A stretch of 64,000 bases of DNA from a virus (IMGVR_UViG_3300029319_009270:26545-90544), one strand, 5' to 3'. Counted from the first letter of the stretch, positions 15,009 through 39,525 are shown. The notes: generated by a model from the letters alone, not told the origin. Program-made: numbers and translations.

Positions 15009-15434
15009 TTACGAATCAATCGTTCTTACTATAATTCCAGAGCTTTCTAGTATATCTATTCCCTTACTGTTAGGATATCTTTCTAAATATATGACTTCTT
15101 TAATTCCTGCATTAATAATTGCTTTGGCGCAAACATCACAAGGAGATAATGTCAAGTACATTTTTTTGTCTTTTGACGTATTGTAGTCACACTTAATTAA
15201 TGCATTGATTTCAGCGTGTATAAAACCACTCATACCTACCTGATTTGAATCCCTTGTATTTGGACCGCCTTTTTGATCTCCATTATATCCAACAGCAAAA
15301 ACCTGAGTGTTGTCTTCTGACACAATAACACAGCCGACTTTGTGTTTTGGGTCGACTGATCTACAAGCTATCATTCTAGCAAATTGGGACCAAATATGGT
15401 CCCAACTAGGTCTTCCACTTCTGATTGCGTACAT
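15009..15434 (-). CDS. dCMP deaminase (ComEB-like)
   Basis: VGCVIV, GYNG, HAEINA and SPCDVC zinc motifs. Confidence 0.93.
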   Translation of the reverse strand: MYAIRSGRPSWDHIWSQFARMIACRSVDPKHKVGCVIVSEDNTQVFAVGYNGDQKGGPNTRDSNQVGMSGFIHAEINALIKCDYNTSKDKKMYLTLSPCDVCAKAIINAGIKEVIYLERYPNSKGIDILESSGIIVRTIDS

Positions 15435-15436
15435 TG

Positions 15437-16288
15437 TTATTCATCCTCTTCTTGAATGTCAGAAAATATTTCATCAACATGTTTATCCTTGCTAATTCTA
15501 AAACCCGCTGCTTTTCTATGACCCCCGCCTCCAAATTCTTTGGCAATCTCAGAAACATCAATTGTATCATGAAACGATCTTAAACTGACTAGGGTAGTTT
15601 TTGCATCGTGGTCGTAATACCAAATTGTTGCAAAATCACAATCAGGAGAAAGTTTAGCGCCTATTTCTGACATCCAATGTGAAGCATTAACAACATATGT
15701 TTTCATACCTTTGTACTCTTTTAAAGTTGCTTTTTCACATATCTTTTTAATAACTGTCTTTGAATACGCTAATATATAGCTACCTCTTTTAACAGCGTCA
15801 TCAAAGACAGAATCATCTTCAAATTTTTCAAACTCTTCAAATTCAAACGGAACCATGTCAAAAGCTGCACTAAATTCTTTTGAATAAGGTAATTCCCATT
15901 TCCACAGATCTCTGTCCATAATGTACTGAATAAACTTAGGTGGTTCCTTTCCTGGATGAAACCACTCCCAAGATAACATCGCACCACTTTTGGTCATGTC
16001 AAAATGTGTATTACTAATATCGTGTAATTCAACCATAGCAGATTTATGATGATCAATAACTAATAAATTATTAGAGTCTTCTATCATCTTTTTTGTTGTT
16101 GCGTTATTAAAAGAAAAATCTAATATTACAACATTCTTATTTTTAACATCTGGGGGTTGGGTACCGTGCTTGCACGCGTGATACTCTGCTCTATTACCAA
16201 GTAGCTTCCACGCAGAATATGCAGCACCAAAACCGTCTGTACAATGTGCATGATATATTACACAATCTACGCTGTTCGGATCTAACAT
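15437..16288 (-). CDS. DHH/DHHA1 phosphoesterase
   Basis: DGFGAA, ILDF, IDHH, SLRS and GGGGH.AAG. Confidence 0.92.
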   Translation of the reverse strand: MLDPNSVDCVIYHAHCTDGFGAAYSAWKLLGNRAEYHACKHGTQPPDVKNKNVVILDFSFNNATTKKMIEDSNNLLVIDHHKSAMVELHDISNTHFDMTKSGAMLSWEWFHPGKEPPKFIQYIMDRDLWKWELPYSKEFSAAFDMVPFEFEEFEKFEDDSVFDDAVKRGSYILAYSKTVIKKICEKATLKEYKGMKTYVVNASHWMSEIGAKLSPDCDFATIWYYDHDAKTTLVSLRSFHDTIDVSEIAKEFGGGGHRKAAGFRISKDKHVDEIFSDIQEEDE

Positions 16289-16302
16289 ATTATACTCCTA
16301 AA

Positions 16303-16878
16303 CTAAATGCGCATATAAGTATGGTGTTCCTGACATCTTGGCTCGTAAAGTTCTGACCCACCTACTTGAATTTTTTTATTCGCATTACTTAAACTATGTT
16401 GTTGTTTTTTGTGTGTATATCTTGCATCTTTCTGGCATATCGGACAAACAGCTTTACATTTTACAATTCTTGTACAAAAAGGCATTATTTTTTGTACTTC
16501 TTCAAAAGGCTCTCCTAAAAAATTTAAATCAATTGAAGCAATTACTACATCATAACCCATTTTAAAAAGATCGATACACTCTTGTGCACTACCTTCTATT
16601 AAAAATAACTCATCTATAATTACACAGTCATAAAAGTCTGCGCCTAGATCATGAGATTTCATAATCTCTATAATTTCTTTTCCTGTATTAACAAGATGAG
16701 CATCAAGCTTATTGAAATTGTGTGTAACTATTTCGCCCTTACCAGAATATCTGTCATCCATTTTGGATTTAAAAGCAATCAAATTCTGTTTCCGGTATTC
16801 CCTTTTATCAGCTTCCATTAATAACTTTGTTGTCTTCGAACTGAACATTGGCCCAGTATACAATATCATTTCTGCCAT
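16303..16878 (-). CDS. tdk: Thymidine kinase (type II)
   Basis: GPMFSSKTT, DDRY, IDE, zinc lasso C..C and GGSELYEPRC; TAATG coupling at 16878. Confidence 0.93.
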   Translation of the reverse strand: MAEMILYTGPMFSSKTTKLLMEADKREYRKQNLIAFKSKMDDRYSGKGEIVTHNFNKLDAHLVNTGKEIIEIMKSHDLGADFYDCVIIDELFLIEGSAQECIDLFKMGYDVVIASIDLNFLGEPFEEVQKIMPFCTRIVKCKAVCPICQKDARYTHKKQQHSLSNANKKIQVGGSELYEPRCQEHHTYMRI

Positions 16879-17858
16879 TACTTCAAACCCCACCACTTAA
16901 CTGTTTTTTCTAATCCTTCCCAAAATCTTACTTTAGGCGTGTAACCAAAAGCTTCTTTTGCTCGAGTTATGTCTGCACATGTATGCATAACATCACCTGG
17001 TCGCCATGGTGCAGTATGAACTTTTGATCCGAAGTTATCTATAAAATAAGTTAATATCTCTCCATTTGTTACAGAATCGCTACACGCAATATTAAAACAT
17101 TGACCACGCCATCTTTCTTTTACCTTTGAGGAAAGTATATTTGCATCAACAACATTATCAACATAACACATGTCTCTACTTTGAGTTCCATCACCATCCG
17201 ATCGACAGCTAAGACCGTTTTTAGTAGCATGACACCAAGCAGAAACTGCAGTCGAATAAGGGCTGTCTCCATACTGACCCGGCCCAAACACGTTAAAATA
17301 TCGAAGGCAAACAATATCAGAATCATCATAAAGTGAACCATAAACTTTGGCGATATCTTCACACGCAGATTTTTGCCAAGCATAAGGTGACTTAGGCTTT
17401 TTGATCGTTGATTCAGGCGTAGGCATAATATCTGCGCCACCATAAACTGACGATGATGAAGAAAAAATAATTCTTGTTTTTCCAATTCTTGCTGCATCAA
17501 ATAATTTAACTGTATTCATTAAGTTGACCTCAGTCGTCTCTGCTGGATTCTCAACTGAAAAACTTACTCGTGGTACCGCAGCAAGATGAAATATGCAGTC
17601 ATAATTTCCTAATGCAACTTTTTCTAATATTCCGCTGAAAGCGAAATCACAATGAAAAAACCTAATAAAATCTCTGCCTGTTTCATCTATGCTGTGCATA
17701 ATCTGTGCCATTGATTTTCTAATTTTATATTCTTCTAACGAATCAAAATTACCGCTAGATAAATCATCAACAATGTCAATCGTGTAATTTTCTTCATGTA
17801 GCTTCTTAACTAAATTAGAACCTATGAAACCGAAACCACCCGTTACTAAAACTTTCAA
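16878..17858 (-). CDS. NAD-dependent NDP-sugar epimerase/dehydratase (extended SDR, WbpP/GalE-like)
   Basis: TGGFGFIG, HLAA, SSSSVY, YAWQK, RYFNVFGP and GDGTQSRD. Confidence 0.93.
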   Translation of the reverse strand: MKVLVTGGFGFIGSNLVKKLHEENYTIDIVDDLSSGNFDSLEEYKIRKSMAQIMHSIDETGRDFIRFFHCDFAFSGILEKVALGNYDCIFHLAAVPRVSFSVENPAETTEVNLMNTVKLFDAARIGKTRIIFSSSSSVYGGADIMPTPESTIKKPKSPYAWQKSACEDIAKVYGSLYDDSDIVCLRYFNVFGPGQYGDSPYSTAVSAWCHATKNGLSCRSDGDGTQSRDMCYVDNVVDANILSSKVKERWRGQCFNIACSDSVTNGEILTYFIDNFGSKVHTAPWRPGDVMHTCADITRAKEAFGYTPKVRFWEGLEKTVKWWGLK

Positions 17859-17875: not shown

Positions 17876-18790
17876 CTAAATTATAATATGCGCAGAATTA
17901 AAGTTTATTCTTATTCTACATTTCAAATTATTTAATCTTAATTGATTGTATACTTTACTACAAAGATAATACAAGAATTGAATATCGTATTTTAAAGTAT
18001 CTTTTGTATTAGATGATCTAAAAACAAAATTACAGTCAAATATTCTATTTCTTACTGTGAACTGCCCAAAAGAAATACAAGTATCAGAGCTGTACACAAA
18101 TCGTCTAGAAGCAGTATTTTCTTTTCTATTATGTTCATTATTCCCATTCAACTCATTTTCTATTTTGTTCTGAACTGATTTTAATATGCTTTGATAATAA
18201 TCTTTTTCGGGCTCGTATTCCAAAACTTTTAAATTAATATCTTTAAAATCGCAGTCGCTATAATAAGTTAGATTGATATGAGAAGCTTCTAAACTATCAT
18301 TTGCTGCCGCGAACATATTTACATAACCAGCAACATCTTGAATGCTGATGGCTTCTATCGTCATCAACTCTTTAATAACCGGTTCAACGTAAGAAAGCGT
18401 ATTATCATCTCTAATAACCATCACGTTTGGATACAGTCTTAATTCCTCAGCTGCTTCTTCAAACAATCTATAAACTTTTTTAAGGGTTGTTATGGTTTGT
18501 ATATCATCCCCTCTTTTGTTATAACGTCGTTCAATCTCGTCCCACGATGGTAAAAGTATAATAATACGATTGTTCAAGTTTTTAATTTCTGCATTAAGTC
18601 TTTCAACTTCAATAAAAGTATCGCGATCGTAAAGCTTTGCATAAACTAACATTGACAAAGCAGATCGATCTTGGATATTCCAACGATACTTAGAAATTTT
18701 ATGCAGCTGATTATAAAAAGAAGTCTTGCCAGACAAATCAGGGCCTTCTAAAATTAACTGACTTGTTGGGAAACAATTTGTTTTATTCAT
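17876..18790 (-). CDS. dNMP kinase fused to a minimal thymidylate-synthase (ThyA)/dCMP-hydroxymethylase-fold domain
   Basis: N-term LEGPDLSGKT P-loop and DRS; C-term SRR...DTCISFGQF...FRSSN...LKYDI...NSAHI; start at 18790 after GGAGG. Confidence 0.8.
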   Translation of the reverse strand: MNKTNCFPTSQLILEGPDLSGKTSFYNQLHKISKYRWNIQDRSALSMLVYAKLYDRDTFIEVERLNAEIKNLNNRIIILLPSWDEIERRYNKRGDDIQTITTLKKVYRLFEEAAEELRLYPNVMVIRDDNTLSYVEPVIKELMTIEAISIQDVAGYVNMFAAANDSLEASHINLTYYSDCDFKDINLKVLEYEPEKDYYQSILKSVQNKIENELNGNNEHNRKENTASRRFVYSSDTCISFGQFTVRNRIFDCNFVFRSSNTKDTLKYDIQFLYYLCSKVYNQLRLNNLKCRIRINFNSAHIII

Positions 18791-18864: not shown

Positions 18865-19530
18865 CTAGCTCACGTATTTCAATATTAATTCAGGCACTGA
18901 ATAATTGAACAACTCAAAATCTTTTTGATACAGATTGTAAAAATATTTTGTAACATCTGGCGAATATTCCCAGTCAGGTTGTATATCTTTATTAATTCTG
19001 GATTTATTCATGTGAGGTAGTTTTTGATTGCTGATGACGTCTTTGTCATTTAAAAACTTTATAACATTTTCAATTTCTTCAAATTTAAAAACTTTTGTTT
19101 TATCATCAACAAAATAATGTTGAGGCACCCAGTGATTATCGTCGAAACCCATTCCTAATTTAGGAACAAGATCTGTAAAAACTGCGTGCATATAATGAAT
19201 AATCCCATGAGGCGTTATTGAGTTTCTAGTAATCGTGGTTGTCTCTAGCTTTTCGTAACCTTTAATTACATAAAATATTTCTGACAACATTCTTTCTATG
19301 GGATTTCTAACGATCGTAAATGTAAATTCAATGTCTAGATCTGAATTCATTTTATTATACACGTCTTTCGTATGATGAGGATGCGCCTTAAAATAGTTTG
19401 ACTCTTTGGTAAAAAACCTTTTCTCATCTTTTTTCCAACCTGCACTTTGTATTAGTTTTCTTATAGAAGTACCTCCAGTTTTAGGTATGTGCACAAACTG
19501 TATTGTTCTGTTGTCTTTATAGAATATCAT
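18865..19530 (-). CDS. Sulfotransferase (Sulfotransfer_2-like)
   Basis: FVHIPKTGGTSI (5'-PSB loop), VRNPIERMLS (3'-PB) and HWVPQ; ATGA overlap with dnaE. Confidence 0.88.
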   Translation of the reverse strand: MIFYKDNRTIQFVHIPKTGGTSIRKLIQSAGWKKDEKRFFTKESNYFKAHPHHTKDVYNKMNSDLDIEFTFTIVRNPIERMLSEIFYVIKGYEKLETTTITRNSITPHGIIHYMHAVFTDLVPKLGMGFDDNHWVPQHYFVDDKTKVFKFEEIENVIKFLNDKDVISNQKLPHMNKSRINKDIQPDWEYSPDVTKYFYNLYQKDFELFNYSVPELILKYVS

Positions 19531-22500
19531 ACTACAAGCGGCCTAACTTTTGCTACGCTAGTGCTAGCACCCCAGTTTGGATCATTGTGTGCTGTACACA
19601 GCCATATCGAGTAAGGTTGCATTTCTCTAGGGGCACCACCCCACATTCTAAGCCAGCCCGTATTACTTTCATGATCAGTAATTTTAATTCTATAAAATGT
19701 TTTCTTATTTTTTGTAGTCTTTTTAATCATCTCAACAACACAATACCAGGCAACACCTTTTTCGTTAGACTCCATATTAAGAACTGACTTAACTCCGCTT
19801 TTCATGATTTTTTCCATTAATTCTTCGGGAAATGCCAGATCATCTCTTGTCGCAGAACACATGTCCTGATACATTTGCAATTTTTCAATACGATTCCAAT
19901 CATCTTGGTCTTTTGTTTCACTGATCAGTATAGGAAGCAAATCAGGTGCATTTTCTTTTTTTGCTTTCCTTACAGTCATTCCCCAGCGACTCTTTTTAAG
20001 TTTTTCATAATTGTCGATAATAATACTGTGTAACTGCTTGTGATGATCGATAGTACCATCCCACATCTCTTCTAAACAATCAAGTGCTTCAACTTTACAA
20101 AGAGCAGAAAAACCTGTTTTGTTTAATTTACTATGATACCACTTTCCATCTTCATTAAATAACATGCTATCAACCGATGTATAAGGTCGGTTAGCCATGA
20201 TTTCTTTTACAGCATTCTTTCCTAAACCTTTGATTGATGTCAAGGGTGGAATAAAAGCTTGCTTCTGCTCTGACCACGACCATGCTAGACCTGATTCATT
20301 GATGTCAGGTGTTGAAACTTCATAGCCCATTGCTTTAATTTCTGAAATTGCTTTTGAAAGATTTTTAGGATTGTTATTCTCAGATTCTAGAATAGTTCCT
20401 AACCAATCTGTTTCATAGTATGTATGAAGCCATGCAGCATAGTAAGATCCAATTGCATATGCCACAGCATGAGACTTATTAAATCCATAAACTGAAAAGA
20501 ATTCAATTCTTTGCCACAATTCTTCGCTTACATGTTCGGGTACGCCATTAATATCTTTTGCACCCTTAATAAACTTTTGTTTAGCTGCTTCTCGTTCATC
20601 ACCTTTTTTACCCATTGTATCAAGAGACTTTTTAACCAACGTCTTTCGAAGCTTATCAGATTCAGCAGGTGTAAACCCTCCAAGCTTTTGGGCTAAAATC
20701 ATGAACTGTTCTTGAAATGTTACGTGCCCAAATGTTGGACCAAGAACCTCCTTGATGATTGGGTGAGGATATTCAATCTCACTGGCTCGAGCTTTATCCT
20801 TTACATATTTCAAGTGAACATTCGCACGAAGAGGGCCAGGGCGATATATCGCTGTTAACGCTCCAAGCTCTTCAATAGAAGTAGGTTTAGCGTCCTCGCA
20901 GAATCGCCGAGCACCTTCTGCAGTAAACTGGAATACACCTACTTTTCTTCTTTGATGATAAACATGTTCCCAAACCTTCATATCATCTTGTTCAACGTAA
21001 CGACAATTTAAATGATCATCAAACCAATCTCGAATCTCGAGAAACGTTGGTTCTTTACCGTTTTCTTTTGTTAAAATACGTTTGATGCAATTTTCTACGT
21101 CTTTTAATAACGTAAGGCCAAGAAAGTCAAACTTAATAAATCCGTTATCCTCAAGATTACGAAAGTTCATGCCTTCTGTCCAGGGAGTTTGCAACTCACC
21201 CCGAACACCAATTATAGGCATACCTCGTGCCAGATCATCAGCTGGTCCAATAATCACACCACCTGCATGACGCCCAACTGATCTATTCTGCATAAAGAGA
21301 GCTTCGATATGATCCTTTACTTTCGGATATTTTTCCATAAACTCTCGATATTTTTTTGAATACTGCATACAGTCAGAATGCTTGAGCACAAAAACAGACT
21401 TTTCAGTATTTTCATCTCTTGCTTGTGCCATTACCTCATCTTGTAGGGGCCCAGTCATTTTGTTAACTTCAGCAAAGTCTATGCCGTAAAATTTAGATAT
21501 ATCCTTTACAAGCGACTTAAGTTTGAGCGTGTTAAAATTAGACACAGGAATGACAGCCTCATCACCGTAAAGATCTCGAGCGGCGTTAATTAATGCGTCA
21601 CGATCACCAGCATCAGAATCAATATCAGGCCAGGACGTCCTATGTCTACCTAGAAAACGTTCCCAAAGCAAATCATATTTCAAAGGATCAATTTGAGTAA
21701 TCCCTAGTAAGTAGTTGACAAGAGATCCACCACCGGAGCCTCGTGCAGCACCAAATAAGGTGTGATCGGCTGCTTTGTGAAACACTTCATACATTACAAG
21801 GAAGTAATTTTCAAATCCAAGAAATTTAATATCTTCAAGTTCGTGTTTAGCTCTTTCAACGTATTCTTTTTTCGTATGCAAATTTTCTTTAATCATTGCA
21901 TCTTTGACTTTCTTTGCTAGCTGTTGAAAAGCAGTTTCATTAGGCTTGTTAAAATCAGGTAGTTTAACACTAGTGTCAATCCAGCAATCATCACATTTTT
22001 CCCACGCAATATCATATGTTCTTTCGATTGAATCTTTAACAGTTTGTTCATAACCTTCATAAGTGTCTTTATATTCATCATAGTGACAAACAAACTCATC
22101 CCACATTTGTTGTGCATTTTTAGGATACAATTCACACTTTAAATCTTCAAACTCAGGCAGTGGTGAAGGATCATTACCCATCCAGCCTAACTTCTTATAA
22201 AGCTCTCTTGCTTCCCACTTATCAGGAGAATAGTAATGTGAGTCTGGTGTAGAAATACAATTAATTCCTGTTTGCGCTGAATGGCGCAGCAAATGGTGAT
22301 TTACAAGGTGTTGTTGTTTCAATCTGTTGAATTGCAGTTCAAGATAAAAATTTTCTTCACCCACTGCGTCAACAAAGCGATCAGAAAGATACATTAGTTC
22401 CTGTTGTATCTCCTCATCAGATTTTTTCATTGCATTTCCTCTCATAATCCTATTAGAGTAAATACCTCCTAAACACGCAGTTGAAACATTCAATCCACGC

Positions 22501-23039
22501 CCATGTTGTTTAAGTAAGTCAAAATCAATCCTTGGGTAACGATAGAATCCTTCTGTATAAGCTCTTTTAATTAAAGTAAACAGGTTACCTAATCCTTCAC
22601 GATTTTGTGCTGTTACAACAAGATGGTACCTTCTTTTCCACTCGTCTTTGCCTACAACGACAGTCTTTGTTTCTTCTTCATTTTCAATAACATGCCCGCC
22701 TTCTTCTTCTTCTTTTATTGCCTTTTGTTTGGCAGCAGCTCTATCTAACTTTGCTTGCTCGTAATCTGTTTTCCAGTCACTAAGTGAAGGAACAAAATAA
22801 AATTCGCAACCATAAATTTGACGATACTTTATTCCTTTCTTTTGCAGTTTTGTTGCGTGTTTGTGCGCGTGTGCTAACCCGGAACCGTTGCCGTGATCAG
22901 TTAAACCCCAAGCGTCCATTCCATTTTCTATAACAAAATCAATATGATCAGAAGGATATCCTAATCCATCAAACACAGAAAAACCTGTGTGTCCGTGTAA
23001 TCCAACAAATCTTTTAGGGGGCTTTATTAATAAACTCAT
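19527..23039 (-). CDS. dnaE: DNA polymerase III alpha subunit (C-family, DnaE-like)
   Basis: PHP motifs LHGHT.FS..DG, TDHG, GCEFY, DSHY; ARGSGGGSLV; PDIDSD catalytic triad; KFDFLGL; YGFNKSHA. Confidence 0.97.
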   Translation of the reverse strand: MSLLIKPPKRFVGLHGHTGFSVFDGLGYPSDHIDFVIENGMDAWGLTDHGNGSGLAHAHKHATKLQKKGIKYRQIYGCEFYFVPSLSDWKTDYEQAKLDRAAAKQKAIKEEEEGGHVIENEEETKTVVVGKDEWKRRYHLVVTAQNREGLGNLFTLIKRAYTEGFYRYPRIDFDLLKQHGRGLNVSTACLGGIYSNRIMRGNAMKKSDEEIQQELMYLSDRFVDAVGEENFYLELQFNRLKQQHLVNHHLLRHSAQTGINCISTPDSHYYSPDKWEARELYKKLGWMGNDPSPLPEFEDLKCELYPKNAQQMWDEFVCHYDEYKDTYEGYEQTVKDSIERTYDIAWEKCDDCWIDTSVKLPDFNKPNETAFQQLAKKVKDAMIKENLHTKKEYVERAKHELEDIKFLGFENYFLVMYEVFHKAADHTLFGAARGSGGGSLVNYLLGITQIDPLKYDLLWERFLGRHRTSWPDIDSDAGDRDALINAARDLYGDEAVIPVSNFNTLKLKSLVKDISKFYGIDFAEVNKMTGPLQDEVMAQARDENTEKSVFVLKHSDCMQYSKKYREFMEKYPKVKDHIEALFMQNRSVGRHAGGVIIGPADDLARGMPIIGVRGELQTPWTEGMNFRNLEDNGFIKFDFLGLTLLKDVENCIKRILTKENGKEPTFLEIRDWFDDHLNCRYVEQDDMKVWEHVYHQRRKVGVFQFTAEGARRFCEDAKPTSIEELGALTAIYRPGPLRANVHLKYVKDKARASEIEYPHPIIKEVLGPTFGHVTFQEQFMILAQKLGGFTPAESDKLRKTLVKKSLDTMGKKGDEREAAKQKFIKGAKDINGVPEHVSEELWQRIEFFSVYGFNKSHAVAYAIGSYYAAWLHTYYETDWLGTILESENNNPKNLSKAISEIKAMGYEVSTPDINESGLAWSWSEQKQAFIPPLTSIKGLGKNAVKEIMANRPYTSVDSMLFNEDGKWYHSKLNKTGFSALCKVEALDCLEEMWDGTIDHHKQLHSIIIDNYEKLKKSRWGMTVRKAKKENAPDLLPILISETKDQDDWNRIEKLQMYQDMCSATRDDLAFPEELMEKIMKSGVKSVLNMESNEKGVAWYCVVEMIKKTTKNKKTFYRIKITDHESNTGWLRMWGGAPREMQPYSIWLCTAHNDPNWGASTSVAKVRPLVV

Positions 23040-24125: not shown

Positions 24126-24180
24126 AATATTCCTCTTGTTGGTTGGGGATTATATCGAATATTAAAAAACTATAAATTTA

Positions 24181-24852: not shown

Positions 24853-24898
24853 TTAAGTTGTGTACTCAATAATTTTCGATACTGATCCGTTAATTTAA

Positions 24899-25173: not shown

Positions 25174-25192
25174 AGATTCTTCCTTTTAAAAA

Positions 25193-25268: not shown

Positions 25269-25277
25269 ACAAAAACA

Positions 25278-25589: not shown

Positions 25590-25616
25590 GATTCTCTCCT
25601 ATTTTAAAGAATAATA

Positions 25617-26037: not shown

Positions 26038-26045
26038 TAAAACTA

Positions 26046-28632: not shown

Positions 28633-28635
28633 AAC

Positions 28636-28824: not shown

Positions 28825-28832
28825 TATACCTC

Positions 28833-29918: not shown

Positions 29919-29929
29919 AATTTTTCTCC

Positions 29930-30268
29930 TTAATTTTTTTCAACAATTGCTTTCAATGGAAAACCAGACTGTCTAGCATAATCAATGACTTGAGCAGATT
30001 TTGTATCAGCAATCTCTTTGCTGAAAGGGCCGCCTGCTATACCCTTCCCTTTTTCATGAACAGAGCTAGCTATATTCCACGCTGTATCAACATCTTTATA
30101 AAAAAAAGTAATTAACACTATAACAACAAATTGAAAATGTGTATAGTCATCATTTAACAAGACAACGTTGTATTTACTAGGTTTTACTACTTTATTCTTT
30201 TCTTTTTGTCTATCAAGTAGATCTACACCGCTATCACAATCTTTGCTTTCTTTCTTTTTTTGAGTCAT
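29930..30268 (-). CDS. clpS: ATP-dependent Clp protease adaptor ClpS
   Basis: [27 protein letters not shown] and FPL. Confidence 0.92.
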
Positions 30269-30322
30269 TGTTGCCTTTTATAAAAGTATAACAAACTTCT
30301 TAAGTATTTTCAAATTATTTTT

Positions 30323-31855
30323 TTAATCTTCTGTATACAAATAACCAAAGTATAAAGCTTGTTTTAAAAGATCAAATATCCCAGGTGGTAAATGATCTAC
30401 GAAATAAAACAATGATCCTTTATACTCTCCTACAAAAGCTTTTTCTGGGCTTGGTGGTATACTGGGTGGGACAGCATCCCTTTCCAACGGATAATCGTGC
30501 TCCACAACTCCGAAGAATGGGATTAGTGTATCCTCGACTGGCGAATCTGCTTTCTCTCCGCCGTATGCGGTCATGTCAATCCAATACATAAATCTATCAA
30601 CATCGTCTAACCACGGAGCAAAATCTACTGAAACTTGCCATAAAAAGTTTTTCTCACTTTTTTCATTTTTAAAAAGTTCAGGATTTATTTTTCTGTATAT
30701 CACAGGTGCGCCGTCTAAGTATTTTTTTATTAAATTATTCTGAGATAACATAATAACTTCGCCTTGAGGACCGTAGTAAGGCTTTTCATAGCTACCTTCA
30801 TTTTCTTCTACTCTGACGTTGCTTTTTTTATTTACATCTATTACGTCTAGTGCTCTTCCTCGGTCCTTTAAGTCTTTCATTATCTTTTTAATTTGTTCTG
30901 ATCCAAAAAACTCATACCCAGGATACATGGCGGGTATCACCTTGAATTTAGTTAAATTTTTGAATAAGTGTCCTGGGCCAACCATCATAGTTCGACCTAT
31001 CATTTCTTTTTCACCGGTCAGCGTCTTTATCACTAGATCCTCTTTGCTCTCGCCTCGCATACTGGCTAAATCACCAGTGATATCTTTGTTTTCTAAATCA
31101 ACAACAGGAACATTAATGTTAATTAGGGTATTGGCAATATCACCTACTATTGTCTGAATTGAATTCCCTTCTCTGTCGGCACCAAGTTTATTGATATCTT
31201 TTAACAGCCAACTTGTATCAATAATTACTTTTTTGACTTTTGGATTGATCATGATAAACTCATTGGATGAAAGCCTGTCGGATGGCAAGCCATACGTGTC
31301 AGGGCCTAGTATCATATATTTAATGTAGTCAGCTGGATCATCGCTTATCCCGCCCTGTAACTTGCCAGGCATTTTGGTTTGAAATATTCCACCCCTCTCA
31401 GTTTCTGCGTCTCTATCAAATGCCAAAGCAACAGGTCCATCTAAGACTAAACCAATCTTTCCGATCAATGTTGATCCTTTTTGTGCTTGAAAATTCATAT
31501 AACCGACTGATGATACTGCACCAGATATTTTTAGCTGTGACTTGTTAGACCATTTCTTAAAATCATTTAATAGCGTTACGACACTGCCTTCGTAAAGATT
31601 GAACCAATGAATGATTTCAAGATTGTTTGAATTCAAAAAAGAACGATCAGCACATGTATCGAAAGCTTTATAGTACGCAGTCTGTTCTTCTTGACCTAAG
31701 TTTTGAAATTGTTTAAAGTGGCCACTGACACAATCATAAGATGGTTCAACAGTAACACTTGAGTTAGTTGAATTAACAACCTCAATATTTTCTTCATCTT
31801 GTTCTCTTAAAACATCTCTAATTATTTTTCGAACAGTCGTTTTGTTTATAAACAT
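30323..31855 (-). CDS. Hypothetical protein, N-terminal-motif family (putative virion internal protein)
   Basis: MFINKTTVRKIIRDVLREQ; ATAATTAT upstream. Confidence 0.8.
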   Translation of the reverse strand: MFINKTTVRKIIRDVLREQDEENIEVVNSTNSSVTVEPSYDCVSGHFKQFQNLGQEEQTAYYKAFDTCADRSFLNSNNLEIIHWFNLYEGSVVTLLNDFKKWSNKSQLKISGAVSSVGYMNFQAQKGSTLIGKIGLVLDGPVALAFDRDAETERGGIFQTKMPGKLQGGISDDPADYIKYMILGPDTYGLPSDRLSSNEFIMINPKVKKVIIDTSWLLKDINKLGADREGNSIQTIVGDIANTLININVPVVDLENKDITGDLASMRGESKEDLVIKTLTGEKEMIGRTMMVGPGHLFKNLTKFKVIPAMYPGYEFFGSEQIKKIMKDLKDRGRALDVIDVNKKSNVRVEENEGSYEKPYYGPQGEVIMLSQNNLIKKYLDGAPVIYRKINPELFKNEKSEKNFLWQVSVDFAPWLDDVDRFMYWIDMTAYGGEKADSPVEDTLIPFFGVVEHDYPLERDAVPPSIPPSPEKAFVGEYKGSLFYFVDHLPPGIFDLLKQALYFGYLYTED

Positions 31856-31888: not shown

Positions 31889-32866
31889 CTAATAATACTG
31901 TGTCAAATCTATATTTTTACCTTTTGCTTCTTCAAGATATCTTAAAGGATTGTAATTGTCTGTTTTTGTTATGCTTTCAAAAGACATTCTAATACCTGTT
32001 TGTAGATCAATCTTTGGTGACCACCCAGATACATTTCTAAACTTCCAAGATGATAGCATATGATTACCAAGGTAGTCTGTTTTAGAGTGCCATCTGATTA
32101 CATTCTCAAGGTCTAGATCAGTAACTTGTTGAATCAACTTTACAATCTCACCTGTCATCAAAGGAGTTTCAGCTGCAACATTCCAATCCTGGTACCAAAG
32201 ATTTTGATTTATTGCTGTTAAAACTGCATCGCAATAATCGTTGACATGCATGTAGTCTTTAATTTTTGAAGGATCCAGGAACATATCAATCTGTGTCTTT
32301 CCGTTAATAGCACCATAGATTGATTTTGCAATAAGAGAATTCATATCTCCAATTCCTCCATAAGCGAATAGAGGTCGAACAATCATCCATTTTTCAACTT
32401 GACTTTTAATAATGTCCTCTGCACAGAGTTTTTGACAGCCATATAAAGTGTGTGGGCCTCTATCTGATCTTTCTTCAATTTGCTTGCTTTGGTAGTTCTT
32501 TGTATCATATATCACTGTCGTACCCATGTAGCAGACAGGTATGTCTAGCTTTCTTGCAGCCCGGCAAATTGTATACGTACCTTCAACGTTGGTTAAGGTA
32601 GATTCTTTAGCATTAAGTGCTACAACGTCTGTACCGACAACTGCAGCATTATGTATTATAACATCAATTTTTTCACTTTTGAAAAAGTTTACCCAATGAT
32701 CAATTGAATTTCCATGAACACAAGGTTCTTTTTTCTCGGACCATTTTGTAAAATAATTATCATATTTTGACACGCCTTCATTGACAACTTCTATATCAAA
32801 TAACTTAGATCTGGCTATTAGATTTCGGCCGATGAAGCCTTTTTCTCCGGTGATGAATAATTTCAT
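31889..32866 (-). CDS. NAD-dependent NDP-sugar epimerase/dehydratase (extended SDR, divergent)
   Basis: ITGEKGFIG, HNAA, GTTVIY, YGCQK and KDYMHVND. Confidence 0.88.
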   Translation of the reverse strand: MKLFITGEKGFIGRNLIARSKLFDIEVVNEGVSKYDNYFTKWSEKKEPCVHGNSIDHWVNFFKSEKIDVIIHNAAVVGTDVVALNAKESTLTNVEGTYTICRAARKLDIPVCYMGTTVIYDTKNYQSKQIEERSDRGPHTLYGCQKLCAEDIIKSQVEKWMIVRPLFAYGGIGDMNSLIAKSIYGAINGKTQIDMFLDPSKIKDYMHVNDYCDAVLTAINQNLWYQDWNVAAETPLMTGEIVKLIQQVTDLDLENVIRWHSKTDYLGNHMLSSWKFRNVSGWSPKIDLQTGIRMSFESITKTDNYNPLRYLEEAKGKNIDLTQYY

Positions 32867-32886: not shown

Positions 32887-32915
32887 ATTATACAAAGCAT
32901 TATTGAATATTACAT
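32887..32915 (-). promoter_or_regulatory. Putative class-1 promoter ATGTAA-N17-TATAAT
   Basis: Motif and spacing. Confidence 0.65.
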
Positions 32916-33356
32916 ATGTGTATGATAACTTTTGTGACGCTCATACATAATATCAGTTTTTACATGATAGTGATCAATACCTAATGCATGCCCTGTTTCA
33001 TGAACAACAACTTCATAATCAGTCACACCTTCGTGTGAAAGCTTTATGACTGCATTATCTAAATACCGATAAGTCCAATTGAGTTCAGTGTGTCCGTAAG
33101 TACGTACTGTATCAATAGTATCATCAGCAGGTGCAAATTTAATAACATACTTTTCTGGTTTGCCATCACAATGTGTTCTTGTAGAAATTTCACCAAATTC
33201 ATGACCTCTTGATTTCCAATATTCGATAGCATCTTGAACGTACTCAATTTTAATATTAGAATTTTCACAATAAACAACATCGGGTGCTACACGCCAGGTT
33301 GCAAAGTATTCATAGTCTGCAGCAAATGTTGAAGCAATCAAAGCTAGTAGAAACAT
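32910..33356 (-). CDS. Secreted matrixin-like (M10 metzincin) metalloprotease
   Basis: Signal peptide; HETGHALGIDH zinc motif; DIMY Met-turn. Confidence 0.88.
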   Translation of the reverse strand: MFLLALIASTFAADYEYFATWRVAPDVVYCENSNIKIEYVQDAIEYWKSRGHEFGEISTRTHCDGKPEKYVIKFAPADDTIDTVRTYGHTELNWTYRYLDNAVIKLSHEGVTDYEVVVHETGHALGIDHYHVKTDIMYERHKSYHTHM

Positions 33357-34485: not shown

Positions 34486-34935
34486 TTATTCTATTTCACC
34501 TTCATATCTTAATTCAAGCAAACGTTCAGATGCAGTACAATCTTGCAAGTAAGCATCTAATTGTTCCAACGAAGTGCATACTGCAATTCCCGATGCTGCT
34601 AACATGAGATTAAATTGTGCACCGGGTGGTAAACCATCGCAAAAATAAACAATTGGCTTTTCTAAACAATTCATATAACCTGCTTCAAAAATCGACCCCA
34701 TATCTTTGTTTCTTGTATTGCATAGCATCCAGTCACATTCATGAAGATGCCTAATATTTCCTGAAAATATTTGATCTTGTATAGACTCATTAGCATCATT
34801 ATCACAAAGATTTTCATCCTTCGGTGAAAAATAAGAAATGCCGTGTTTTTCAAAAACTGATTTAATATTTTCTACTTCTTCCAACCACTCAGGTGAAAAC
34901 CACCCGCTTGCTAAATAAACTTTTCCTAAACTCAT
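34486..34935 (-). CDS. Nucleoside 2-deoxyribosyltransferase / nucleotide N-glycosidase (NDT, MilB, DNPH1 superfamily)
   Basis: VYLASGWFS, FSPKD, DMGSIFEAG (catalytic Glu) and FNLML. Confidence 0.88.
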   Translation of the reverse strand: MSLGKVYLASGWFSPEWLEEVENIKSVFEKHGISYFSPKDENLCDNDANESIQDQIFSGNIRHLHECDWMLCNTRNKDMGSIFEAGYMNCLEKPIVYFCDGLPPGAQFNLMLAASGIAVCTSLEQLDAYLQDCTASERLLELRYEGEIE

Positions 34936-35924
34936 TATTCTCTCCCCATAAATTGATTGTATTGATTTGTTAATTGATTAATCTCTTCTAATGTTTCTTC
35001 CCAAAGCTGTGTAAAAATTGTTGGTGTACCCGGGACATGATTTTTACCATTAATATCCTCACGACGAGACTGATAAATTGTATCATTGGGATGATATTCA
35101 AACTTATCGTTCTTTGGTTCTGGCCAATATAGGTTTGTACCTCGTGATGTTTCGCCACCTTTACCATCAGGTACGCGAAATGTTTTAATATAGTGCATAT
35201 CTGGTTTATTAAAATTAATACGCGCGGTTGCTTCAGGCAGAACTTTGATTACTTCTCTTGCCATGTACGCGGCAAGTAAATTATCAGCTGCCGGTTGAAT
35301 TTGCATGTCTTGACGTTGAGCGATAAAACCTAACAGATCTTTTAAGTTAAGACGCATTAGATAAAATGAAGTCATGCACTTTGGTAAAATCATTCTTGCA
35401 TCCATCATTGATACAATCTTGGAATCTGTCATGTCAGCATATAATTCCTTAGATTCGCGAACTAACTTTTTCCAGCGCCTATCAAACTCGGGTGTGTTTT
35501 GAACAGCTTCAGGAATTACTGCGGGATCATCCCTTAAGTCACGATCACCAGTACACTGTGCGGCAAAACTACCAGCACGATGTCGTATGATGTGTGTAAC
35601 CTCTTGAAATGATAAGCCACTTAACTTAAATGTAAACCCTAAACATTCCATAGGTGTTGGAAGTGCACGAAAACAAAGAACATCCTCGAGATTTGCAGAC
35701 AGTTCTTTTAAACTAGCAGTAGCTGGATTTGTCTCATCGTGATGATCAGCCCATGTTGCTTTTACATATTGCCAAGCAACATTAAGCGCTTGAGATCTAG
35801 TTGGATGATCAACTAGTTCAACTTTCAAATGTGCAAGATTGTTATAAAATGCTGTGTTGGGTTCTTGACCAAACTTAAGTTCCATTGGCAGATCAACAGG
35901 TTTCAAATCATTATTCTGTGGCAT
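34935..35924 (-). CDS. Divergent ThyX-fold (flavin-dependent thymidylate synthase-like) protein
   Basis: FTF...RHRAGSFAAQCTGDR, DARMILP and NLKDLLGFIAQR. Confidence 0.82.
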   Translation of the reverse strand: MPQNNDLKPVDLPMELKFGQEPNTAFYNNLAHLKVELVDHPTRSQALNVAWQYVKATWADHHDETNPATASLKELSANLEDVLCFRALPTPMECLGFTFKLSGLSFQEVTHIIRHRAGSFAAQCTGDRDLRDDPAVIPEAVQNTPEFDRRWKKLVRESKELYADMTDSKIVSMMDARMILPKCMTSFYLMRLNLKDLLGFIAQRQDMQIQPAADNLLAAYMAREVIKVLPEATARINFNKPDMHYIKTFRVPDGKGGETSRGTNLYWPEPKNDKFEYHPNDTIYQSRREDINGKNHVPGTPTIFTQLWEETLEEINQLTNQYNQFMGRE

Positions 35925-35988: not shown

Positions 35989-36909
35989 TTATTTTATTAT
36001 TAACTTATTAGGATTCGTATAGACAAATGTATTATCACGACCATCAACTTCTAAATTATAATTTTTTCTAGGATAATAACAAACTATTCCGTGCTTTGCA
36101 TAATCCACAATATGTTTGGGAGCATCGTCAATTGCAGCAACTATTTTATCTTTATCATAGTACTTTGACCTAGCACACCATCGAAATTTTTCTGTGCTAA
36201 AGTCAACTGCATCAAACGGAATACTGTTATTTTTTAGCCAATAAAACGTATCATAAAAACATTTTAAATTTTCTTTAGGTCTAGCTGTCAATAGCTGGAT
36301 CCAGTAGCCTTGCTTTTTTAAATTATTTAGCATCTCAATCGATCCATCAACGACATCTAAATTCCTAAACCCACCCTTATTAACAAATTCGTAAAATACA
36401 GCTTCAGGATTTAAATCTAATTTATTCAATGCAGTTATAAAATAGTATTCTTTACTATAGACATCAATTTCTAAATTGTAATTTACACCTAGCCAATCTG
36501 CAAAACCTTGTCTAAATTCAGTCAAAACATCATCCATATCAACAATAACGACAGGTTGAGACCCATCCCAACTATCTTGTGTCTTGTGAAGAAAATTTAA
36601 ATATGAATCTTTATCATAAAAAGCTTCAATAAAATTTTCACTAGATATTTGATTAATATTAAGGATAGCTAAGATATATCGAAATATATCCACAGATTCA
36701 TAGAGCATTTTTGTTTTGTCTACAGAATCTGTTTGTGCATGATGATCTTTAAAATCAACAGATTGCATTAGCTCACTAACTTCTGAATGTAAGCAAAGTG
36801 ATAAAGTTTTTGTAATATCTACAATTTCTCTATCACTTAAGTTTTTTTCGCTTAGATTATATAAGCTAGAATTGAATTTTGCTTGTAAATTGAACAGGTT
36901 TTTCAGCAT
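35989..36909 (-). CDS. All-alpha NTP pyrophosphatase (MazG/dCTPase-dUTPase-like) fused to a HAD 5'(3')-deoxyribonucleotidase
   Basis: N-term EVSELM...F.DH...ESVDIFRY; C-term VDMDDVL, LTAR, T..WL and IDDAP; start at 36909 after GAGG. Confidence 0.82.
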   Translation of the reverse strand: MLKNLFNLQAKFNSSLYNLSEKNLSDREIVDITKTLSLCLHSEVSELMQSVDFKDHHAQTDSVDKTKMLYESVDIFRYILAILNINQISSENFIEAFYDKDSYLNFLHKTQDSWDGSQPVVIVDMDDVLTEFRQGFADWLGVNYNLEIDVYSKEYYFITALNKLDLNPEAVFYEFVNKGGFRNLDVVDGSIEMLNNLKKQGYWIQLLTARPKENLKCFYDTFYWLKNNSIPFDAVDFSTEKFRWCARSKYYDKDKIVAAIDDAPKHIVDYAKHGIVCYYPRKNYNLEVDGRDNTFVYTNPNKLIIK

Positions 36910-37135
36910 TTTTGACCTCACTAATTTTGCCTCCTGCAATTGCAAAGGCGTCTGTTAAACAATCAGGCTCTATTTTTTCAAAAAATATTGAGCTATGATC
37001 TGATAAGCGAATAATTCCTGATAAAAAATCTTTATTTATATTTGTAATAATACACTGCAATTCATCCTTATTACAAAAACTAAAAGAATTAATTATTTTA
37101 TCATTACTAGCAGTCAAAATTAGTTTGTGCATCAA
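36866..37135 (-). CDS. Hypothetical protein
   Basis: Coupled ORF inside the cluster. Confidence 0.5.
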   Translation of the reverse strand: MMHKLILTASNDKIINSFSFCNKDELQCIITNINKDFLSGIIRLSDHSSIFFEKIEPDCLTDAFAIAGGKISEVKNAEKPVQFTSKIQF

Positions 37136-37629
37136 TAACCATTTTTAAGTCTATCATTAATTATTATGTCTTTATTCAAATATGCCTTAAAAAATTCATC
37201 TGAGTCTATGTTTAGATGTATCATTAACGAAAAGAAATAGTTAAAAGCATCAACCATCTCTTCTAAAAATTCTTCCTTATTAAATGTTCCACCAACATCA
37301 GTTTGACGATGAGACTTCCAATTTTTCAAGTGTTGGAGAGCTTCAAACATCTCCTCGACGCCGTGCAATGCTAAGTCTCTTAGATATTTTTGACCATCTT
37401 TTGATGCAGGATTAATTTCTTTTGGTTGCGCTTTCGGAACTGTTTTACTTAAATTAGTCATAAAAGCTTTTCTAAGTAAGAAAATCTGTTCTAAACGATC
37501 ACAATTAAATTCATTATTTGTCTTCTCTTCTTCCTTTAACAGACTCAAGCATTGATTCAATTTCTCTTTCAATTCTTTCTTTGCTTTCTTTCGTAAGTTT
37601 AAGGTTTCCATCGCCATTCTCCAGTTCAA
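37132..37629 (-). CDS. Dimeric all-alpha dUTPase/dCTPase-like NTP pyrophosphatase (start uncertain)
   Basis: EEMFEALQHLKNWKSHR...EEMVDAFNYF...YLNK..N.DR...GY. Confidence 0.82.
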   Translation of the reverse strand: MNWRMAMETLNLRKKAKKELKEKLNQCLSLLKEEEKTNNEFNCDRLEQIFLLRKAFMTNLSKTVPKAQPKEINPASKDGQKYLRDLALHGVEEMFEALQHLKNWKSHRQTDVGGTFNKEEFLEEMVDAFNYFFSLMIHLNIDSDEFFKAYLNKDIIINDRLKNGY

Positions 37630-37723
37630 AAGTTCTTAAGTGATCAACAATATCAGTCCCGGATAAAATAGCTATCTGTAAGGTTCTAGCCACATCTGAG
37701 ATTAATTCATCTGAAAATTTCAT
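37514..37723 (-). CDS. Small hypothetical phage protein
   Basis: AGGAG RBS, 69 aa. Confidence 0.7.
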   Translation of the reverse strand: MKFSDELISDVARTLQIAILSGTDIVDHLRTFELENGDGNLKLTKESKERIEREIESMLESVKGRREDK

Positions 37724-37732
37724 TTTATTCTC

Positions 37733-38545
37733 CTATTTTTGAATACTTGGTACCCAATGTGTTGTCCTCTTGTCTTTAGTCTTTTCTCTAACAACAAGAT
37801 TACCATTTGGATCTGTTTTTTGATTATACACAGCAAAACGCCTACTGTACAAACCTTTTTCACCATTTGACTGCCTATATGTTGCTATTGTAGCTCCACC
37901 CATTTGATACGAAAGTCTAGTAATCCACCGACACGCTTCAGAAAGAGACTCAAATTCTTTGTCAGATACATCCTTACTTAACCTGTGGGGAGATATCTGG
38001 CACGCATAAAGTATTTCTGCTTTTAAATAGTTACCAACCCCAGATATCACAGATTGATTCATTAGGTTTTCAGCTACAGTTTTATTAGGCCTCTTTAAAA
38101 ACCTTTCTCTAATTGTATTCTGATCAACTTCTGAATTTAAAACATCAGGTCCGAGCGACTTAAGTTTCTTCTCAAGTTCATGGAAGCATCGCACATATTT
38201 AAGCGTTCCAAAGTTTCTCACGTCATTAAAGTGAACGCTCTGACCTTTATGGTTAGTTAGCGTTACGCGCGTGTGCTTGTTCTTTTTGCGCTGCCACATC
38301 CCGCTCATACCTAATGTTGACCACAAAGACGAACCGGTATTAAATTTAAAATAGATAAACTTACCTTTGCAGCAAACTTCTTCTACAATCAACGGGAATA
38401 ACTCATTATCTAATAAGTCATAACCTTTAAACGGACCGTGTTTGACATAACGCCCTGAATTAATCTGGACATCTAATATTCTGGTTCCTTGCAGAATGCT
38501 ATTTAAATAGTCAACATTTTTTCTTACTTCTGGACCTTCAGGCAT
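37733..38545 (-). CDS. Fpg/Nei family DNA glycosylase/AP lyase with a zincless finger
   Basis: MPEGPEV, KGKF, LGMSG, DVRNFG, LGPD and H2TH SGVGNYLKAE; no Cys4 finger. Confidence 0.93.
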   Translation of the reverse strand: MPEGPEVRKNVDYLNSILQGTRILDVQINSGRYVKHGPFKGYDLLDNELFPLIVEEVCCKGKFIYFKFNTGSSLWSTLGMSGMWQRKKNKHTRVTLTNHKGQSVHFNDVRNFGTLKYVRCFHELEKKLKSLGPDVLNSEVDQNTIRERFLKRPNKTVAENLMNQSVISGVGNYLKAEILYACQISPHRLSKDVSDKEFESLSEACRWITRLSYQMGGATIATYRQSNGEKGLYSRRFAVYNQKTDPNGNLVVREKTKDKRTTHWVPSIQK

Positions 38546-39110
38546 TTACACCCCTCCTAAACCAATCTGGCATTGTTGCACGCGGTTCCCATTTGGCAAA
38601 CCGGACTTTGTCTTGAATATAATAATTTCTATAGCTTTTTACCGGGTCTCCCGGGACTTTGTAATCTTCTTTCATGCATACAGCAAAAGGGGATAGACCT
38701 TTGTTGTTCATGAAGCGTGGCTTATTCTTACCGAGCCAGTCTAATACTGCTTCAGACTTATGTGTCCTGTGGTATCTCTGTGTGTATTCTTTGCACAGAG
38801 CGACTCCTAATTCCCAGTGCCATTCGTAATTTGCTAGTGACTCGTTTGTCCACAAGGTGCAAGGGTGTCTTATATGAGAAAGTTTCCACGGTGGCTGCTC
38901 GAGTGGGTGCGTGTTATCAAAAAGCCACTGCTGAATATCTCTGACTCTTTTAAAATCCGTTATTTCGCCATCATAATAATTCTTAAGCAAGTGCAACCAA
39001 TGCGCTGTACAGAGCATTTGACCTGATTCTAAAATCATTTTAACGACGTGTTTATTACAGTGATATTTTGCTGCTATTACAGGATTCTTATCAAGAACAA
39101 ATATATTCAT
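38538..39110 (-). CDS. Pyrimidine-dimer DNA glycosylase (DenV-like family)
   Basis: MNIFVLD...A..HC.KHVVKM.LE..QML, HPCTLW, EYT.RY...H and SYRNYY. Confidence 0.8.
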   Translation of the reverse strand: MNIFVLDKNPVIAAKYHCNKHVVKMILESGQMLCTAHWLHLLKNYYDGEITDFKRVRDIQQWLFDNTHPLEQPPWKLSHIRHPCTLWTNESLANYEWHWELGVALCKEYTQRYHRTHKSEAVLDWLGKNKPRFMNNKGLSPFAVCMKEDYKVPGDPVKSYRNYYIQDKVRFAKWEPRATMPDWFRRGVNA

Positions 39111-39525
39111 TACTTCTCAACCAATTGACATAGTTTACAAGAGCGCCATCTTTTGGCTGTACAGTTTTCCACTCACCTTTGCAAAATATTCGATAAGCAT
39201 CAGAACCGTACTTTCCGATACCATATAAATTGGTAGCATCACCTTGCCAGTCTTTGCTTAGATAATCGCAAGACATTTTTTTAAGAGCTTTAGCACGCTT
39301 CTTCGACAGACCTAGAGGCTGTATAAGCTCTACCAGATCATCATAATCAGCGTTTGCAAGGTCTTCAGGTGTTGGCCATCGCTTTAAAACTTCCCAAAAA
39401 TAAGGCTCGGCAGTTAAGCGTTTTGTTAAGTTACAAAAAATACAACAAACAAAAATCTTCCAAGGATCTTGCCAGAGTTTCTCTTGCAGTAGTGTATAGG
39501 GTGATTTAGGTGCTTTCCAATTCAT
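39091..39525 (-). CDS. MBD4-like HhH-GPD mismatch DNA glycosylase
   Basis: W..PKSPY.LLQE.L..DPWK, LYGIGKYGSDAYRIFC and W..VQPKD (catalytic Asp), paralleling the eukaryotic MBD4 catalytic domain. Confidence 0.9.
   Translation of the reverse strand: MNWKAPKSPYTLLQEKLWQDPWKIFVCCIFCNLTKRLTAEPYFWEVLKRWPTPEDLANADYDDLVELIQPLGLSKKRAKALKKMSCDYLSKDWQGDATNLYGIGKYGSDAYRIFCKGEWKTVQPKDGALVNYVNWLRSNEYICS

Follow-up and report, generated by a model that had tools for sequence, protein, structure and literature searches.

A conserved gene module predicted to supply a modified cytosine, with a kinase-fused miniature ThyA-fold protein and a ThyX paralogue, in an uncultured marine giant phage

We analysed a 64,000-nucleotide stretch of viral DNA (the window), corresponding to bases 26545-90544 of the 90.5-kb IMG/VR record IMGVR_UViG_3300029319_009270, which CheckV estimates to be ~37% complete. 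An earlier note on this DNA had proposed that genes lying between positions 15009 and 39525 form an undescribed pyrimidine hypermodification pathway split over two clusters. The window has a G+C content of ~35%, all genes of both clusters discussed here are on the minus strand, and near-identical DNA was found in marine and seawater metagenome samples only. Searches of the window genes against Pfam, PHROG and NCBIfam, complemented by an AlphaFold2 (AF2) model and fold search for one domain, recovered the genes that the note had named, with their domains. One cluster contains a gene (17876-18790) for a fusion protein with an N-terminal YorR/TMPK-like nucleotide kinase domain (amino acids 1-148; 18347-18790) and a C-terminal minimal ThyA-fold domain (amino acids ~150-304; 17876-18343), which we call mini-ThyA and for which Pfam is blank, together with the gene for a DnaE-type replicative polymerase (19527-23039; Pfam PHP, DNA_pol3_alpha, finger and HHH_6). 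The other cluster encodes a ThyX-like flavoprotein (34935-35924; Pfam Thy1, 67.8 bits), an all-alpha nucleoside triphosphate (NTP) pyrophosphatase of the dUTPase_2, gp56-type family fused to an NT5C/HAD 5'-deoxynucleotidase (35989-36945; Pfam dUTPase_2 28.7 bits, NT5C 32.1 bits), and a second NTP pyrophosphatase of 165 amino acids (37132-37629; phrog_12184, E 9e-13, and phrog_173; Pfam dUTPase_2 below cut-off, E 0.008).

To see how these genes are arranged elsewhere, we used 45 viral contigs found with the fusion protein, to which all counts out of 45 refer, and a further 80 found with the ThyX-like protein. Across these marine contigs, about 125 in all, the genes follow one contiguous order, namely HhH-GPD/Fpg glycosylases (variably), the 165-amino-acid pyrophosphatase, the pyrophosphatase-HAD fusion, the ThyX-like gene, a nucleoside 2-deoxyribosyltransferase-family gene (NDT), a second extended short-chain dehydrogenase/reductase gene (SDR2), DnaE (45/45 loci), the kinase-mini-ThyA fusion, a first such reductase gene (SDR1), thymidine kinase (TK), DHH, deoxycytidine monophosphate (dCMP) deaminase and a superoxide dismutase-like gene. 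The two clusters are thus one conserved module, split in the window genome by an insertion, and the proposal of a pathway divided over two clusters does not hold. The gene set does co-occur in relatives. The insertion (23130-31855) separates the module halves and carries PurA-like, metallophosphatase, IMPDH-like, ClpS and orf510 genes, whereas SDR2 directly precedes DnaE in relatives. PurA, orf297 and orf510 occur in none of the 45 related loci, ClpS in one and the metallophosphatase in four; the IMPDH-like gene is exceptional in being present in 13 of 45, mostly between DnaE and the fusion gene.

Several further observations concern this insertion and the module's edges. The PurA-like gene (23130-24125, 331 amino acids, adenylosuccinate synthetase) was considered as a PurZ of the 2-aminoadenine pathway and rejected, as it scores 175-191 bits against bacterial and eukaryotic PurA versus 36-63 bits against the PurZ structures 6fm1, 7vf6 and 7odx. 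The IMPDH (inosine monophosphate dehydrogenase)/GMP-reductase-family gene lies at 28833-29918, and a ClpS adaptor homologue (29930-30268) and a small matrixin/astacin-like zinc peptidase (32910-33356) sit among the nucleotide genes. The Fe/Mn superoxide dismutase-like gene (14037-14729) follows the dCMP deaminase in 25 of the 45 loci, and in one relative a gene for a di-haem cytochrome c peroxidase (L019:11903-12880) is inserted beside the fusion gene; speculatively, these two proteins may handle reactive oxygen arising from flavin/O2 chemistry. No large conserved open reading frame (ORF) of no assigned family was found near the module in relatives, and an ESM Atlas search with orf321 gave no match.

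The fusion protein probably starts at the ATG at 18790, which gives the 304-residue form seen in databases, and more than 300 homologues of equal length are known, chiefly from marine metagenomes. Its AF2 model, built on 24 homologues, has a pLDDT (predicted local distance difference test) of 91. The kinase domain resembles thymidylate kinases and matches YorR (3kb2) with a VIA Z of 13.7, the fusion profile matches YorR at E 3.5e-6, and the homologue alignment shows a Walker A motif of sequence EGPDLSGKT together with unvarying DR and RGD motifs. For the C-terminal domain, the best Foldseek matches were 9iqu and 9iqc, both structures of AfhB, the dCMP hydroxylase of phage HY126 (E 4e-6; VIA Z 11.3, rmsd 2.8, 143 residues aligned). 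When the fusion was compared by hhalign with the family of the validated 5-hydroxy-dCMP synthase RB69 gp48, we obtained a probability of 88% (E 3e-6) in an alignment limited to the C-terminal 80 columns. Here the SRR motif pairs with R138/R139 of gp48, Cys238 (codon 18077-18079) with C163, R258/S259 with R183/S184, RSSN with RSQN, Asp269 with D194, and SAH with SAH. None of the residues Cys238, R258, S259, D269 and H301 varies among 24 relatives, whose identities go down to 45%.

The residues at three positions are of particular interest, as Cys146, Asp in place of Asn177 and Asn in place of Asp169 make up the signature of 5-hydroxy-dCMP synthases and mini-ThyA has all three, with Asp269 (17984-17986) at the N177D position and Asn261 (18008-18010) at the D169N position. 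According to Lee et al. (NAR 2026, PMC13326640), an Asp at the N177 position is a mark of dCMP use, and flavin/O2-dependent 5-hydroxy-dCMP synthases can be diagnosed by an Asn at the D169 position. The former is invariant in mini-ThyA, including the versions from the cultured phage GR1 and from metagenome-assembled genomes (MAGs) described below. This retention of the Cys, the phosphate-binding Arg, the Asp and the His across distant lineages speaks for enzymatic activity, with dCMP as the preferred substrate. The clusters of DLP3, RB69 and RL38J1 have a YorR/TMPK-like nucleotide kinase gene beside the synthase gene (Lee et al. 2026, PMC13326640), and the window protein thus has the appearance of these two neighbours joined into one.

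Most of the N-terminal half of ThyA is gone from mini-ThyA, which has no match to Pfam PF00303 and falls short of a full-length domain of ~217-240 amino acids. A gp48-family hidden Markov model found no match in the genome, megablast of the fusion-gene cluster against phage records found none, and tblastn of the fusion against phage records found none at E 1e-3, the homologues in GR1 surfacing only through hhalign and local tblastn.

The second synthase-fold protein, the ThyX-like flavoprotein, was modelled by AF2 with a pLDDT of 90 and matches Mycobacterium tuberculosis ThyX (3gwc) with a VIA Z of 16.6 and the uridine monophosphate (UMP) methylase PolB with 16.1. It keeps the RHR motif, with R114 and R116 conserved, and equivalents of R147 and R174. 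It departs from ThyX in that Cys replaces Ser88 (Cys124; codon 35553-35555), GD(R/K) replaces the xRY element (Arg90/Tyr91), the folate-stacking His (H53 in Thermotoga maritima) is missing and a conserved C-terminal extension of ~90 residues is present. Its motifs read RHRAGSFAAQCTGDR and LPTPMEC, and the signature RHRxxSxxxxSxRY is not matched. Cys was found at the Ser88 position in all 140 of 140 pattern-matched module copies, and the best sequence match in the PDB is an S88C mutant. While the Pfam Thy1 score exceeds the gathering score, the protein reaches 43 bits against the NCBIfam model thyX TIGR02170, below the cut-off of 87.9. The earlier note's impression that neither synthase-fold protein has the expected folate-binding features is thus borne out, by the loss of most of the N-terminal half in mini-ThyA and by the missing His and the Cys at Ser88 in the ThyX-like protein.

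A canonical ThyX is encoded by the same phage, at 10831-11604 (+) of the record (window coordinates about -15713 to -14940), on the strand opposite to most genes. This protein scores 160 bits, and its motifs RHRxxSxxxxSxRY and HxSxxEH are intact, as RHRTWSYNEISRRY and HRHTSTLEH. Both the canonical ThyX and the ThyX-like gene occur in all three larger relatives (G001-G003, 77-100% complete), and neither the record nor these relatives yielded a ThyA. These phages therefore do not depend on the ThyX-like protein for thymidylate (dTMP) synthesis, and we take it to be a separate paralogue and not the phage's thymidylate synthase. Its features point to a folate-independent flavoenzyme that is genetically tied to mini-ThyA and the kinase, and it appears to be the most novel element of the module. 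The NDT gene adjoins the ThyX-like gene in all lineages examined. Our literature search returned no paper giving ThyX a role in phage DNA hypermodification. The full ThyX-like alignment yielded no usable conserved stretch, and scans with single proteins of distant representatives gave almost nothing. No natural fusion of the ThyX-like protein to mini-ThyA or to the kinase was found among 150 representatives. One metagenome protein, P0264 (551 amino acids), is a natural fusion in which a ThyX-like domain is preceded by a GT2-like N-terminal domain that contains a DxD motif and, at 22 bits, narrowly misses the Pfam cut-off.

The two synthase-fold genes recur together well beyond the marine lineage. 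In cultured Geobacillus phage GR1 (OK896991), the ThyX-like gene is 47% identical to that of the window, and its stop overlaps by 1 nt the start of the gene for a 151-residue 'hypothetical protein', which is a mini-ThyA standing on its own, with Cys, RSSN and Asp all present (hhalign probability 93%, E 5e-7). A separate P-loop protein of 145 amino acids matches the kinase domain with a probability of 97%, so that GR1 holds a split form of the fusion, at 7400-10424. The surroundings comprise genes for a nitroreductase-family flavoprotein, a glycosyltransferase 2 kb upstream, NDT, a YfbR-like HD nucleotidase and DnaE. The order NDT, HD, ThyX-like, mini-ThyA, DnaE also recurs in contigs that had been binned into MAGs of Clostridia and Ruminococcus. 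This order, and with it the ThyX-like/mini-ThyA pairing, was present in 14 of 25 further viral contigs (40-85 kb) of other lineages. The mini-ThyA ORF of L141 scores 23.3 bits against Pfam ThyA (model positions 145-215), just short of the threshold. The ThyX-like and mini-ThyA genes do not always go together, as four loci have the ThyX-like and kinase genes and no mini-ThyA detected within 6 kb. No other thymidylate synthase was found in GR1 or in a complete 54-kb relative.

The remaining members of the module belong to nucleotide, sugar and repair families. These are the dCMP deaminase, converting dCMP to deoxyuridine monophosphate (15009-15434; Pfam dCMP_cyt_deam_1, E 3.7e-22; 32/45 loci), a DHH/DHHA1 phosphoesterase (15437-16288; phrog_4771, E 2e-75, and Pfam DHHA1; 25/45), TK (16303-16896; Pfam TK, E 4.8e-36) and the NDT-family protein (34486-34935; Pfam Nuc_deoxyrib_tr, E 3.7e-16). 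SDR1 (16878-17858; Pfam Epimerase, E 2.6e-46; 33/45) resembles nucleoside diphosphate (NDP)-sugar 4-epimerases of the GalE/TviC type, its NCBIfam matches to TviC and GalE all being below cut-off, and SDR2 (31889-32866; Pfam Epimerase, E 1.2e-27; 26/45) is RmlD/dehydratase-like; the latter had been placed two genes beyond NDT and lies three genes on. Both SDR genes are kept in the marine module and absent from the small-phage versions.

Upstream of the pyrophosphatases, in the window as in many relatives, is a glycosylase trio, for two members of which Pfam upholds the original call, namely Fpg/Nei (37733-38545) and a short, truncated HhH-GPD protein (39091-39525). The third, orf190 (38538-39110), is DenV-like solely by an ESM-Atlas lead, and the link of all three to the module is uncertain. 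The two NTP pyrophosphatases have no detectable sequence match in the PDB, and BLAST against the RB69 dCTPase gp56 was not significant; gp56 falls in the same Pfam family as the N-terminal domain of the pyrophosphatase-HAD fusion with nearly the same score (28.8 versus 28.7 bits). A dimeric dUTPase/dCTPase begins the 5-hydroxycytosine (5hoC) pathway of Mosigvirus, according to a preprint.

A sulfotransferase gene (18865-19530; Pfam Sulfotransfer_2, E 9e-14) lies between DnaE and the fusion gene in the window. Of the 45 related loci only 3 have it, in a different place, and its occurrence among larger relatives is sporadic; we treat it as an accessory gene outside the conserved module. Searches for APS (adenosine 5'-phosphosulfate) kinase returned sub-threshold noise only, and no gene for synthesis of PAPS (3'-phosphoadenosine 5'-phosphosulfate) was found. 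The earlier note had seen no glycosyltransferase in the window, and in the rest of the 90.5-kb record, itself ~37% complete, no GT1, GT2 or GT1_4 family gene was found either; none of ten ORFs in module gaps of relatives is a glycosyltransferase. Glycosyltransferase clusters are present in two relatives (G002 and G003) more than 100 kb from the module, and there is none in the 87%-complete relative. The one we examined, in the complete 284-kb genome G003, is a 30-kb glycan gene cluster (L171-L172; G003:C1:122000-152000) with genes for guanosine diphosphate (GDP)-mannose 4,6-dehydratase, GT11, GT6, GT2 and GT4 glycosyltransferases, a carbamoyltransferase, a heptose-type kinase/cytidylyltransferase and radical S-adenosylmethionine (SAM) proteins. 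The two clusters were considered as sources of DNA glycosyltransferases and dropped, as they look like fucose/heptose-type surface-glycan clusters.

On the basis of sequence, models and analogy, we lean, by a small degree, towards a reading in which the module of this uncultured ocean giant phage supplies a modified deoxypyrimidine to its own DnaE, the key enzyme being a reduced, kinase-fused relative of the 5-hydroxy-dCMP synthases. By analogy, the module most likely replaces cytosine in the phage DNA with a modified form, which is probably 5-hydroxycytosine. That some C5-modified deoxycytidine is made we hold to be likelier than this reading in full, and the hydroxyl in particular to be less certain. 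The slots of a T4-style replacement pathway, which had been proposed to be occupied, are indeed all filled. In such a pathway the gp56-type pyrophosphatases, to go by their family, would convert deoxycytidine triphosphate (dCTP), and deoxyuridine triphosphate, to the monophosphates. The conserved Cys of mini-ThyA would then attack C6 of dCMP and a new group would be placed on C5, most likely a hydroxyl formed with O2 and reduced flavin in the manner of AfhB and RB69 gp48, as the fold and residue signature suggest. The fused YorR-like kinase could phosphorylate the product in place, a step to which the fusion itself and the neighbouring kinase genes of known 5hoC clusters point, and host NDP kinase and the phage DnaE would complete its incorporation into DNA. 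The dCMP deaminase, TK, NDT-family protein, HAD nucleotidase and the canonical ThyX encoded elsewhere would sustain the supply of deoxythymidine triphosphate. The ThyX-like protein may either serve the hydroxylase, for example by flavin reduction, or make a further C5 change, and the SDR pair may alter an NDP-sugar that would be used in a subsequent O-glycosylation. A role for the SDRs in DNA modification, part of the earlier proposal, is unproven.

A number of points weigh against this reading. VIA does not separate AfhB from MilA or classical ThyA as a match (Z 10.5-11.3; MilA 10.5). At ~155 amino acids, mini-ThyA is ~80 residues shorter than AfhB and gp48, so that a flavin site is not assured. 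The D169-equivalent is not fixed: the window protein, GR1 and 20 of 24 close relatives have Asn, whereas among all fetched loci, scanned by pattern, 39 have Asp, 26 Asn and 3 Glu. Synteny inside one viral lineage may reflect descent and not function, and neither the record nor the neighbourhood of the module yielded a DNA glycosyltransferase. 5-Hydroxycytosine is a base that the cellular Fpg/Nei and EndoIII enzymes remove. The presence of genes for Fpg/Nei and for HhH-GPD proteins of the EndoIII superfamily makes bare 5hoC in the phage DNA awkward and puzzling.

It is possible, if rather doubtful, that the Cys-bearing ThyX paralogue without a folate site and mini-ThyA constitute an unrecognised two-enzyme system, widespread in ocean jumbo, gut and soil phages and in GR1, whose product, phosphorylated by the kinase, would be an undescribed pyrimidine modification, or 5hoC made by a new flavin handover. 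In a related and unlikely explanation, the two proteins, or the ThyX-like protein alone, would install a group other than hydroxyl on a pyrimidine deoxynucleoside monophosphate, such as a one-carbon unit relayed via flavin N5 without the usual folate site, the base possibly being a modified uracil, and the YorR-like kinase would phosphorylate the product. The invariant Cys at Ser88, the retained RHR, R147 and R174 alongside the lost His53 and altered Ser88, Arg90 and Tyr91, the coexistence with canonical ThyX and the four loci in which mini-ThyA was undetected would all suit such chemistry, as would the frequent Asp at the D169-equivalent, a feature of folate-using enzymes, and the weak GT2-like fusion of P0264. 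Yet the window mini-ThyA has Asn at this position and AfhB as its best fold match, no specific alternative reaction is indicated by fold or motif, and PolB illustrates that enzymes with a ThyX fold can simply methylate.

We regard it as quite improbable that the module serves ordinary nucleotide metabolism, boosting or balancing canonical deoxynucleotide pools, with mini-ThyA as a nucleotide-binding or regulatory remnant and the ThyX-like protein as a redundant or condition-specific thymidylate synthase. Many large phages whose DNA is unmodified have genes for TK, dCMP deaminase, NDT, dUTPase-like proteins and nucleotidases, the ThyX-like protein does pass the Pfam Thy1 threshold, and no other thymidylate synthase was found in GR1 or in the complete 54-kb relative; however, the invariance of the catalytic Cys, the phosphate-binding Arg residues, the Asp and the His of mini-ThyA across distant lineages speaks against a remnant, the ThyX-like protein does not reach the cut-off of the NCBIfam equivalog and has no folate-stacking His, and the marine genomes already hold a canonical ThyX. 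The fullest version of the earlier proposal, a sugar-derived and sulfated pyrimidine made with SDR1, SDR2 and the sulfotransferase, is highly improbable: for all the placing of the sulfotransferase gene between DnaE and the fusion gene, the conservation of two SDRs inside the module and the weak resemblance of the DHH protein to NrnA, a 3'-phosphoadenosine 5'-phosphate (pAp) phosphatase, that gene is in 3 of 45 loci and lies elsewhere in relatives' genomes, neither APS kinase nor a DNA glycosyltransferase was found, and the glycosyltransferase clusters of relatives are of surface-glycan type and missing from the 87%-complete genome.

If the reading with a reduced 5-hydroxy-dCMP synthase relative is correct, very abundant marine giant phages, represented by hundreds of protein clusters in ocean metagenomes, carry modified cytosine, which would affect sequencing, restriction and counting of their DNA, and mini-ThyA would be the smallest known working thymidylate-synthase fold. 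Mini-ThyA is invisible to Pfam-based searches such as those on which the 5hoC synthase survey relied (Lee et al. 2026, PMC13326640). The ThyX paralogue may in addition point to new flavin chemistry on nucleotides. GR1 is cultured and carries the same gene pair, so that the reading is directly testable.

The closest characterised counterparts of the fusion are the flavin/O2-dependent 5-hydroxy-dCMP synthases (HY126 AfhB, 9iqu/9iqc; RB69 gp48; DLP3 gp80; RL38J1 gp216), together with their glycosyl-5hoC pathways, and they fit the earlier guess of a hydroxyl. With these enzymes mini-ThyA shares the ThyA fold, the catalytic Cys, the SRR and RS motifs, N177D, D169N (in the window protein) and the C-terminal SAH, and with their pathways the YorR/TMPK-like kinase and a member of the gp56-type dCTPase family in the genome. 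It differs from them in size (~155 versus 217-238 amino acids), in having no Pfam ThyA match, in the loss of the loop that precedes the Cys and of the greater part of the N-terminal half, in being fused to the kinase, and in a D169-equivalent that varies between Asn, Asp and Glu across its family. No DNA glycosyltransferase or arabinose genes accompany the window module, unlike the 5hoC pathways. A ThyX-like paralogue always accompanies the fusion, whereas the RB69 region gp45-gp55 lists none, the genomes of RB69, DLP3 and RL38J1 not having been searched for one. The first step of the pathway can no longer be called undescribed, as had been proposed, 5hoC pathways having been published in 2025-26; we suggest that its novelty lies in a reduced, fused variant of a known 5-hydroxycytosine-type pathway with an unexplained ThyX paralogue.

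With the T4 precursor set (gp42, gp1, gp56, cd, td and tk) the module shares the logic of destroying dCTP, modifying dCMP at C5, employing a phage kinase and making dTMP through dCMP deaminase and a thymidylate synthase, whereas the window enzyme is miniature and predicted to be folate-independent, its kinase is YorR-like and not gp1-like, ThyX takes the place of ThyA, and the polymerase is DnaE. The ThyX-like protein has the fold, the RHR motif and the R147 and R174 equivalents in common with ThyX and the UMP/dUMP methylase PolB, and is set apart from ThyX by the loss of His53, the replacements at Ser88 and Arg90/Tyr91, the C-terminal extension and its coexistence with a canonical ThyX. A further parallel is offered by MilA of mildiomycin biosynthesis, likewise a ThyA-fold enzyme acting at C5 of a cytosine nucleotide and encoded near an NDT-family protein, the N-glycosidase MilB, which may be the counterpart of the NDT-family protein of the window. 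MilA, however, is full-length and folate-dependent and acts on CMP in the making of an antibiotic, whereas the window enzyme is embedded in a phage replication module.

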